A stretch of 35,161 nt of DNA, from the IMG/VR virus record IMGVR_UViG_3300045988_152413, one strand, 5' to 3'. Origin of the DNA: a virus. A program made the position numbers and the translations under genes. Under the pieces are notes generated by a model that was not told where the DNA came from, ran no database searches, and saw nothing but the letters and a program-made list of their open reading frames with translations. This document shows, piece by piece, positions 23,143 to 23,807 of this stretch; position 1 is the stretch's first letter, and each line of letters opens with the position of its first letter.

Positions 23143-23436
23143 TTACGCGGAAACTAGCTCAAGAAAATGCTCGAATGCGGCTTTTGCGTATTCGCTGCTG
23201 TAATCGACCAACCCGTAATGTTTGAAGTTGTAAAGGTCTTCCGAAGTCCAGCCGAACCCGTCATGGATGTACGCGCACAAGGCGCCGAGCTGTTCGCCGG
23301 TGACCATATCATAGGTTTGCGTTGAAGCGACCGCATACGGGGTTTCGGACAGGCGCTCCATCGCGGACGCTATCTCCGTCTGCATGGAAAGAAGGTCATC
23401 GCTCGCCTTCTCGAATCTCTTCTCGCTTCCAATCAT
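23143..23436 (-). CDS. Hypothetical 97-aa protein (second gene of the MuF-coupled cassette)
   Basis: The ATG overlaps the stop of the 124-aa gene (ATGA). Acidic and helical. No motif recognised. Confidence 0.65.
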   Translation of the reverse strand: MIGSEKRFEKASDDLLSMQTEIASAMERLSETPYAVASTQTYDMVTGEQLGALCAYIHDGFGWTSEDLYNFKHYGLVDYSSEYAKAAFEHFLELVSA

Positions 23437-23807
23437 GATTTTCCCTTCGGCTCGAACAGCTCCATTTTACCATCCGAATGCCAGAAATCGCTGCCAACGT
23501 AATACGAACCGTCTTGGCGAATGAAGAAGAACTTCGTAGCCGCCTTCACCTTCTTGCCCGATATGTTGGCAAGCTCCTGAGCTATCGACCTACCGTTCTC
23601 GTCTTCCACGGCTCCAAAGCACACGCAAAGGCGAATATCCTCACCGCTGTATCCATCGCTTTTCCGCACAATATCCCAAACTGTCTCTGCATCAATTCGC
23701 TTACCATATGCTTCCACGTATCCAGGCAATCCGTGTGCCGCAATGTCGAAAAAGCCTTTTTCCTTCTTTAGCTTCCTAGCATTCAGCCTGAACTGCCTGT
23801 CATTCAT
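23433..23807 (-). CDS. Hypothetical 124-aa protein (first gene of the MuF-coupled cassette)
   Basis: The ATG overlaps the MuF stop (ATGA). Contains FDIAAHGLPG ... IRLCVCFGA, an H-G then C pattern. Confidence 0.65.
   Translation of the reverse strand: MNDRQFRLNARKLKKEKGFFDIAAHGLPGYVEAYGKRIDAETVWDIVRKSDGYSGEDIRLCVCFGAVEDENGRSIAQELANISGKKVKAATKFFFIRQDGSYYVGSDFWHSDGKMELFEPKGKS

Follow-up and report, generated by a model that had tools for sequence, protein, structure and literature searches.

The toxins of the MuF family, the small immunity open reading frames (ORFs) found downstream of them and the hypothesis that they are delivered by way of the phage capsid have all been described previously (PMC5576092, PMC3482391), and experiments have proven such toxins and their immunities for the Apk2, IapK and Aph1 type (PMC12226406). 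Within the MuF superfamily, the Pfam family Phage_min_cap2 constitutes the "MuF2" branch (PMC5576092), for which the MuF2 nuclease toxin of S. pyogenes SF370.1 is a known example (PMC5576092, PMC3482391). Prophages of the gut carry MuF polymorphic toxins in abundance (PMC5576092, PMC12226406). The locus considered here lies in the IMG/VR virus record IMGVR_UViG_3300045988_152413, a stretch of 35,161 nucleotides (nt) that is referred to below as the window. Two ORFs of 124 and 97 amino acids (aa), here called ORF124 and ORF97, are situated on its minus strand between a MuF-like gene and a scaffold gene. With a probability of roughly 0.7, this region belongs to a temperate Eggerthella siphophage and forms the variable end of its MuF polymorphic-toxin locus, with ORF124 as the putative toxin domain. 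A MuF polymorphic toxin with its immunity gene is a known system; the ORF124 and ORF97 families are undescribed, and the orphan immunity cassettes found between CRISPR repeats in host chromosomes are an unexpected finding.

Compared with described MuF polymorphic toxins, the locus has the same PF06152 (MuF2) N-terminus, in a gene right after the portal gene of a temperate siphophage, the same variable C-terminal extension, a small ORF (<150 aa) directly downstream, and a sister allele (in phage contig L033) that carries a recognized toxin domain, Ntox50. It differs in that neither the ORF124 domain nor its partner can be placed in a described family, ORF124 being no recognized toxin domain, and in that a 1-nt frameshift separates the toxin domain from MuF in the window. 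The host, moreover, is Eggerthella, a member of the Actinomycetota, whereas the 2017 MuF survey placed its stress on Firmicutes (PMC5576092), and matching orphan cassettes sit in a CRISPR array of that host. The features of the locus are as follows.

26473-27762, minus strand: large terminase, TerL (Pfam Terminase_3, 1.7e-33)
25060..26472, minus strand: SPP1-type portal gene (Pfam SPP1_portal, E=1.7e-12), adjoining MuF on its upstream side
25060..23804, minus strand: MuF-like ORF of 418 aa (PF06152 Phage_min_cap2, E=3e-16, above the gathering score; phrog_581 minor head protein)
23941..25060, minus strand: conserved N-terminal body of MuF2, about aa 1-373 (PF06152, phrog_581)
23804..23940, minus strand: linker, MuF aa ~374-418, the start of the variable C-terminal module, from which sister phages diverge
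23814..23819, minus strand: frameshift site, GGAAGG (GGAAAGG in 8/8 closest relatives)
23433..23807, minus strand: ORF124, putative C-terminal toxin domain of a 542-aa MuF protein (fused in L016-L022 and L036)
23143..23436, minus strand: ORF97, candidate cognate immunity gene, whose start overlaps the ORF124 stop (ATGA)
23085..23133, minus strand: intrinsic terminator (17-bp hairpin and U-run) directly 3' of ORF97, ending the MuF-toxin-immunity unit
22771..23084, minus strand: hairpin-rich intergenic DNA, common to phages with different cassettes
22216..22770, minus strand: scaffold gene (PF06810, E=2.5e-5; phrog_194, phrog_31118)

An earlier note on this DNA, made from the sequence alone, described ORF124 and ORF97 as two extra genes chained to MuF by ATGA overlaps. 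The ORFs exist, and both overlaps are real (23807-23804 between MuF and ORF124, and 23436-23433 between ORF124 and ORF97), but in all eight of the closest relatives ORF124 is the C-terminus of MuF itself. In seven IMG/VR contigs (L016-L022, 95-97% identical to the window across a 4.5-kb stretch spanning the locus) and in a scaffold of Eggerthella sp. CAG:209 (L036), MuF is a single 542-aa ORF in the order MuF, "ERRS" and ORF124, the last of these forming the final 124 residues. The extension on the MuF polypeptide that is present in these relatives is thus lacking in the window, where 418 aa and a separate 124 aa are encoded. A single A is absent from the window, and in the comparison with L017 this 1-nt gap at the MuF/ORF124 junction is the sole gap in 4.5 kb, alongside 134 substitutions. 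The absent A is responsible for the MuF stop and for the first ATGA overlap; since the relatives read one 542-aa ORF, this apparent coupling is a by-product of a 1-nt deletion or of a consensus error. Homologues of ORF124 are often reached in frame from the end of MuF ("...DRALADNSIAMTERRSMNDRQ..."). Judging from these alignments, ORF124 is the C-terminal domain of MuF in this lineage and no independent gene. The split in the window is either a 1-nt deletion or an assembly/consensus error, and the assembly alone is compatible with either. Programmed frameshifting at the junction was also considered and was rejected, as a slippery heptamer is absent and the relatives require no shift.

The C-terminal part of MuF is exchangeable among sister phages. 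In L032 and L033, homology to the window ends at approximately 23937-23949, where their proteins part from the MuF of the window after "GLYGKVH(L/I)D", and it returns after ORF97. The intervening slots contain the following.

L033 5112-6054 (= window 23940-23135): a 531-aa MuF ending in Ntox50 (Pfam E=6e-24), then a 71-aa ORF
L032 4155-4900 (= window 23940-23135): a 564-aa MuF with a C-terminus of ~190 aa, then a 60-aa ORF

The flanks of these slots are 93-98% identical while the C-terminal modules are unrelated. Ntox50 is a predicted RNase toxin domain typical of interbacterial polymorphic toxins. The L032 C-terminus looks GNAT-like by eye and is without a Pfam match. On the upstream side, the MuF2 body is 93-98% identical in relatives, those with other C-terminal modules included, with 83-93% identity over MuF aa 1 to about 373 in L032 and L033; the exchangeable part measures ~170 aa, of which the last 124 aa form the compact HG...C domain discussed below. 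Comparison of these phages shows that the modules have been swapped through recombination, with the conserved MuF body on one side and the conserved terminator/intergenic flank on the other. A C-terminal module and a small ORF (94-98 aa, 71 aa or 60 aa) stand between MuF and the scaffold gene in every relative found, which is at odds with the earlier note's view that MuF is directly followed by the scaffold gene in related phages. A blastn search of INPHARED phage records with 4.5 kb of the locus returned zero matches.

The downstream boundary of the slot is a strong terminator followed by a spacer, as had been claimed. The hairpin (23133..23085) has a folding free energy of -25.9 kcal/mol (z = -5.4, with 0/200 shuffles equally stable) and is retained where phages hold a different cassette as well as in the chromosomal copies described below. 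The ~370 bp that separate ORF97 from the scaffold gene (window 22771-23142) are 93-98% conserved among phages with different cassettes, and chromosomal cassettes terminate within this spacer at window 22976 and 23072; the conserved intergenic DNA (22771..23084) is likely to be the 3' recombination flank. Several hairpins are found in the spacer, including a second terminator-like one at 22977-22954. The impression that the cassette is richer in AT than its surroundings was borne out by a GC content of 0.514 in 23143-23940 (0.491 in ORF124), compared to 0.592 in the conserved part of MuF and 0.559 in the whole window. Beyond the spacer, the N-terminus of the scaffold protein (window 22616-22760) is a low-complexity Gly/Asn/Ala/Glu repeat (GENANGEGAQGDNANGGNANGEGAQGEGNEGDDG), which yields spurious ORFs in other frames.

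A further group of phages (L009-L012, L023 and L031) holds a decayed ORF124 module (L009 7480-7980). In these phages MuF is cut short at 403 aa by an additional A, GCC has taken the place of the ATG and an in-frame TAG is present, and a 96-aa ORF97 homologue is still intact downstream of the decayed toxin. Phages of this type turn up in several samples, and because they carry a decayed module, the ORF124 domain is dispensable for phage production.

The ORF124 domain belongs to a sizeable family. An exhaustive HMMER search (E<=1e-3, with clusters formed at 50% identity and counted by representatives) yielded at least 171 cluster representatives for the ORF124 profile, and in 74/75 homologues examined the domain occupies the extreme C-terminus, mostly that of MuF proteins. 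Its N-terminal partners are Phage_min_cap2 (18), Phage_Mu_F (14), VG15 (5), a portal protein, a PT-TG pre-toxin domain and a polyvalent-type protein with PBECR3; the portal case, P0147 (599 aa), has the HG...C domain fused at its C-terminus. The two motifs that had been pointed out in ORF124, a strand ending in His-Gly and a later strand ending in Cys, are both present (FDIAAHG, with His25, and IRLCVCFGA, with Cys63), at a spacing of 38 aa and not the ~45 aa originally given. The His-then-Cys order noticed there is the central hallmark of the family. His25 (23735-23733), Gly26 (HG = 23735-23730) and Cys63 (23621-23619) are invariant in the 75 homologues and in a set of 33 diverse ones, and the family consensus reads YDVxxHGxP ... 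DAxxLAxII ... IRLLSCxTG ... CFAQxLANxLGVxVxAP ... DG. The pattern is that of clan CD, with a His-Gly followed later by a Cys that comes after a small residue and with a hydrophobic strand before each.

The invariance of these residues agrees with the suggestion of a caspase-like His-Cys dyad made in the earlier note, and the assignment to the caspases or to C80 comes from sub-threshold profile matches. Nine of the 33 diverse members match Peptidase_C80 in this way (best E=8e-4, bit scores of 14-18 where the cutoff is 23.8) and 12 of the 33 match DUF4347, in each case collinearly over the dyad. In P0058 (3184 aa), five or six HG...C domains alternate with PI3/PI4-kinase-like domains, and the same segments match both Peptidase_C80 and DUF4347, although the DUF4347 cutoff is passed only when scores are summed over the repeats. 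P0058 resembles a self-processing polyprotein. A profile search of the PDB with the ORF124 family gave zero matches, and a search of a large protein database with the family profile gave just short unannotated proteins, with no bridge to annotated families. A cysteine peptidase of clan-CD-like (C80/DUF4347-like) type is the probable identity of the domain, a prediction from sub-threshold matches that should be taken as a lead and not as a result.

ORF97, by its pattern of conservation, behaves as a candidate cognate immunity protein. Its family comprises 29 clusters, with 28/29 near full length, while ORF124 matches are mostly truncated or frameshifted. Structure prediction, proposed previously for both products, was successful for ORF97 alone, giving a confident AlphaFold2 (AF2) model with a predicted local distance difference test (pLDDT) score of 88 and a small alpha+beta fold. 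A Foldseek search with this model against PDB and BFVD found no significant neighbor, the best being an uncharacterized siphovirus protein (E=0.06); immunity proteins commonly have small alpha+beta folds without structural neighbors. L034 and L035 are two distant phages in which MuF2 also ends in HG...C, and in them the next ORF (98 and 94 aa, respectively) is homologous to ORF97, with hhalign values of E=2e-4 and 9e-6 and a common motif, DG.F.WTSED.Y..HYGL.

The alleles of the two products fall into types A and B. Between these, aa 1-82 of the toxin domain are 86% identical, aa 83-124 are 59-64% identical and the ORF97 partners are 52-54% identical, and among the loci examined A pairs with A and B with B in every cassette scorable for both parts. 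This co-variation points to a partner interface on the C-terminal third of the toxin domain (aa 83-124). The core of the proposal, a MuF-linked effector with a cognate partner, is upheld on comparative grounds by the slot swaps, the Ntox50 allele, the invariant HG...C residues, the co-variation and the survival of orphan ORF97 in host chromosomes, and its anatomy has to be redrawn as one MuF domain plus one gene.

The phage is an Eggerthella phage of the gut. An assembly of Eggerthella sp. CAG:209 holds a 95.6%-identical piece of it, and spacers in Eggerthella-like genomes match the window, which ties the phage to this host. The presence of genes for an integrase, a CI-like S24 repressor and RecT in the window indicates that it is temperate. 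The relevant positions are listed here.

Window 33481-33522: protospacer, matched by a spacer of a type III-A array (L001 5611-5652, 97.6%)
Window 6005-6034 and 34421-34454: protospacers, matched by spacers L037 7071-7100 and 7202-7235 of an array with a 36-nt repeat (GTTTGATTACCAGTTAGATCGACACTGCTCCAAAAC)
L001 6001-7250, L015 1454-7650, L013 8125-9465, L037 280-6250 and L040 6929-13985: CRISPR-cassette island, present likewise in L041 and L043

The island in these chromosomes adjoins a conserved block of HD_4, CitMHS, Fe-ADH and RecJ genes in many Eggerthella-like contigs of up to 509 kb. It consists of sense-oriented type I-E repeats, GTG[CT]TCCCCGCATACGCGGGGATGATCC, spaced partly at the normal 61 nt and partly by inserts of 0.4-2.4 kb, with ordinary 33-nt spacers interleaved with the kilobase inserts in the I-E array. 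Most identifiable inserts consist of the 5'-truncated end of a MuF toxin gene and an intact immunity gene. Two types of toxin end occur, that of ORF124, which begins 48 or 130 nt ahead of the ORF124 ATG, and that of Ntox50. Each island has several immunity genes, drawn from ORF97 (type A or type B) and from the genes of 71 aa and 60 aa. Intact chromosomal copies of ORF97 adjoin toxin pieces that are N-terminally truncated or frameshifted. MazE-PIN, HipA and other phage fragments are likewise seen among the island inserts.

Two other readings of the island were considered and rejected. The junctions between repeats and cassettes were obtained repeatedly, from independent samples and with different assemblers (SPAdes, MEGAHIT k141 and Logan), and are therefore real and not assembly chimeras, which are also opposed by the divergence of the cassettes from the phage (74-92% identity) and by their running on into chromosomal genes. 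An integron attC reading of the repeats does not fit with their length of 28-29 nt, their typical I-E sequence and the normal 61-nt spacing in the same arrays. The simplest idea for the origin of the cassettes is spacer-protospacer recombination. The conventional I-E spacers of the island have zero matches to the phages compared, so no protospacer-adjacent motif can be derived.

It is possible, as a tentative proposal, that Eggerthella gathers, in its type I-E array, immunity genes directed against MuF toxins delivered by capsids. Fragments of phages would be captured via spacer-protospacer recombination or aberrant integration, the immunity genes would be kept since they are protective against toxins injected by phages, and they might perhaps be co-transcribed with the precursor CRISPR RNA.

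The surroundings of the island vary. Depending on the strain, the orphan ORF97 island lies beside a type III-A CRISPR-Cas system, another CRISPR array or a type I restriction-modification (R-M) system, and this alternation of R-M and type III-A flanks suggests a hotspot of defense islands. In L013 (1-6500), the type I R-M system has two inverted HsdS genes around a tyrosine recombinase and resembles a phase-variable shufflon.

The location of orphan ORF97 in a defense island, near type III-A CRISPR-Cas, another array or type I R-M, would also be compatible with an injected anti-defense or host-takeover effector, in which the MuF-tethered cysteine peptidase would come in along with the DNA and cleave a host defense or regulatory protein in the manner of the effectors proposed among polyvalent proteins (PMC5512222). 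ORF97 would then be an inhibitor or chaperone in the producing cell, and its chromosomal copies would be counter-measures by which the host neutralizes the effector on arrival. The fusion of the domain to proteins from inside the head that are presumably ejected (MuF, portal and PBECR3 polyvalent-type proteins) is in keeping with such a role. Nevertheless, this explanation is an unlikely one, given that a sister phage holds Ntox50 in the same slot and that strict co-variation of toxin and immunity, together with the stockpiling of immunity genes, is a classic toxin signature. Even so, the present data hardly discriminate between an effector and a toxin.

A second alternative concerns this genome only, in which the frameshift may be real and the pair may have become an uncoupled addiction module resembling a toxin-antitoxin system, or a dead remnant. 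Free ORF124 would be produced from its own ATG, with GGAAGG 6 nt upstream, and restrained by ORF97, or it would not be made at all. The difference between GGAAGG in the window and GGAAAGG in the eight relatives can be read in this way, as can an independent 1-nt loss at the same spot in chromosomal copies of the L005 type, the conservation of the internal ATG in fused alleles and the decay of the toxin in other lineages. The difference in the window, however, is one base in one metagenomic assembly and is indistinguishable from an assembly or consensus error, and ORF124 is otherwise intact, its protein being 100% identical to those of L017, L020 and L036, which makes the explanation improbable. 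A self-processing or head-maturation peptidase, in which the HG...C domain would act on MuF or on further proteins of the head during assembly, cleaving in the manner of the cysteine protease domain (CPD) of MARTX and large clostridial toxins, with ORF97 as an assembly factor, is very improbable despite the weak similarity to Peptidase_C80 autoprocessing domains, the internal tandem repeats alternating with kinase-like domains in P0058 and the fact that caspase-like domains of polymorphic toxins are mostly releasing peptidases (PMC3482391), because the domain comes last in 74/75 proteins, at the extreme C-terminus with nothing downstream to release, is decayed and hence dispensable in the L009, L023 and L031 phages of several samples, is replaced by unrelated modules in sister phages, and has a partner, ORF97, that chromosomes keep without any head genes.

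Under the preferred reading, that of a MuF polymorphic toxin with its immunity gene, the toxin domain would be loaded into the capsid by the MuF body and would pass with it into the recipient cell when the phage infects, most likely acting there as a clan-CD-like cysteine peptidase. ORF97 would bind the toxin domain, chiefly at aa 83-124, and protect the producing lysogen. New toxin-immunity modules arrive, as the comparison of sister phages shows, through recombination in the conserved MuF body and the terminator/intergenic flank. A real deletion in the window would leave the free 124-aa domain without its tether for packaging, whereas an assembly error would mean that the 542-aa fusion is what the phage actually makes.

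Several observations weigh against this reading. With the toxin domain detached from MuF in the window, delivery as proposed may fail in this genome. Toxicity, binding, packaging and peptidase activity of the pair are all inferred from sequence. Neither ORF124 nor ORF97 has an at-threshold match in Pfam, PHROG, NCBIfam or PADLOC, and sequence searches of the PDB gave no solved structure for either. An hhalign comparison of the family profile with a hand-entered TcdB CPD sequence found no meaningful alignment, and the AF2 model of ORF124 is unusable (pLDDT 42, from a shallow alignment of 11 sequences). Finally, the domain is internally repeated in the giant P0058, where it resembles a processing peptidase more than a toxin.

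The locus provides a clean natural series, in which otherwise near-isogenic Eggerthella phages vary in nothing but their MuF C-terminal module and its partner gene, covering at least three specificities plus the A and B sub-alleles, and including lineages in which the toxin has decayed and the immunity gene has been kept. It also brings to light a previously unnamed family of putative toxin domains with an invariant His-Gly...Cys (171 clusters at 50% identity), located almost only on head-internal proteins, and a matching immunity family. The stockpiling of matching immunity genes by host chromosomes argues that recipient cells meet MuF toxins. If the array does gather immunity genes in this way, it would be the first population-level evidence of MuF toxins acting on recipient cells, and would represent a new, non-RNA-guided mode of immunity storage by a CRISPR locus.

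With regard to known systems, the closest class for the toxin domain is "Tox-Caspase", whose members are releasing peptidases if internal and toxins if C-terminal; the delivery routes listed for this class (PMC3482391) do not include MuF, a point in which the ORF124 family differs. ORF124 shares with Tox-Caspase, Peptidase_C80 and DUF4347 the order of the His-Gly and the Cys after a small residue, 38 aa apart and each preceded by a hydrophobic strand, and the family shares weak collinear profile matches and an occurrence as terminal toxin or as internal repeats. The individual matches to Peptidase_C80 and DUF4347 all lie below the Pfam gathering score, and compared to the known CPDs (MARTX, TcdA/TcdB) the domain is shorter, at only ~110 aa.

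Type II toxin-antitoxin modules are autoregulated two-gene operons in which the antitoxin usually comes first and binds DNA, and they have no delivery domain. The locus was rejected as a module of this type, as it is the toxin that precedes its partner, relatives have the toxin fused to MuF, and ORF97 lacks a helix-turn-helix or ribbon-helix-helix match in Pfam and PHROG searches.

The chromosomal island has its nearest counterparts in the orphan C-terminal toxin-immunity arrays of contact-dependent inhibition (CDI) and Rhs systems, in which 5'-truncated toxin ends are each followed by an intact immunity gene and several specificities are present, and in the acquired interbacterial defense islands of orphan immunity genes in gut Bacteroidales. 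Like the CDI/Rhs arrays, the Eggerthella island combines truncated toxin ends with intact immunity genes of several specificities per array and keeps a pre-toxin fragment that could support recombination. In contrast to them, it has no adjacent full-length toxin gene or dedicated recombinase, and its cassettes derive from a phage head gene and are separated by I-E repeats in a genuine and partly conventional CRISPR array. Spacer-protospacer recombination is known from staphylococci. A precedent for recombination or integration between phages and CRISPR loci has been reported (Varble et al., bioRxiv 10.1101/2020.10.09.333658), and the Eggerthella island agrees with it in that phage DNA is joined straight to CRISPR repeats. 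It differs from the case of Varble et al. in that a search of the window for a type I-E repeat-like attachment (att) or recombination site, at <=3 mismatches, found none, and in that the island holds fragments of 0.4-2.4 kb instead of whole prophages and is enriched in immunity genes.

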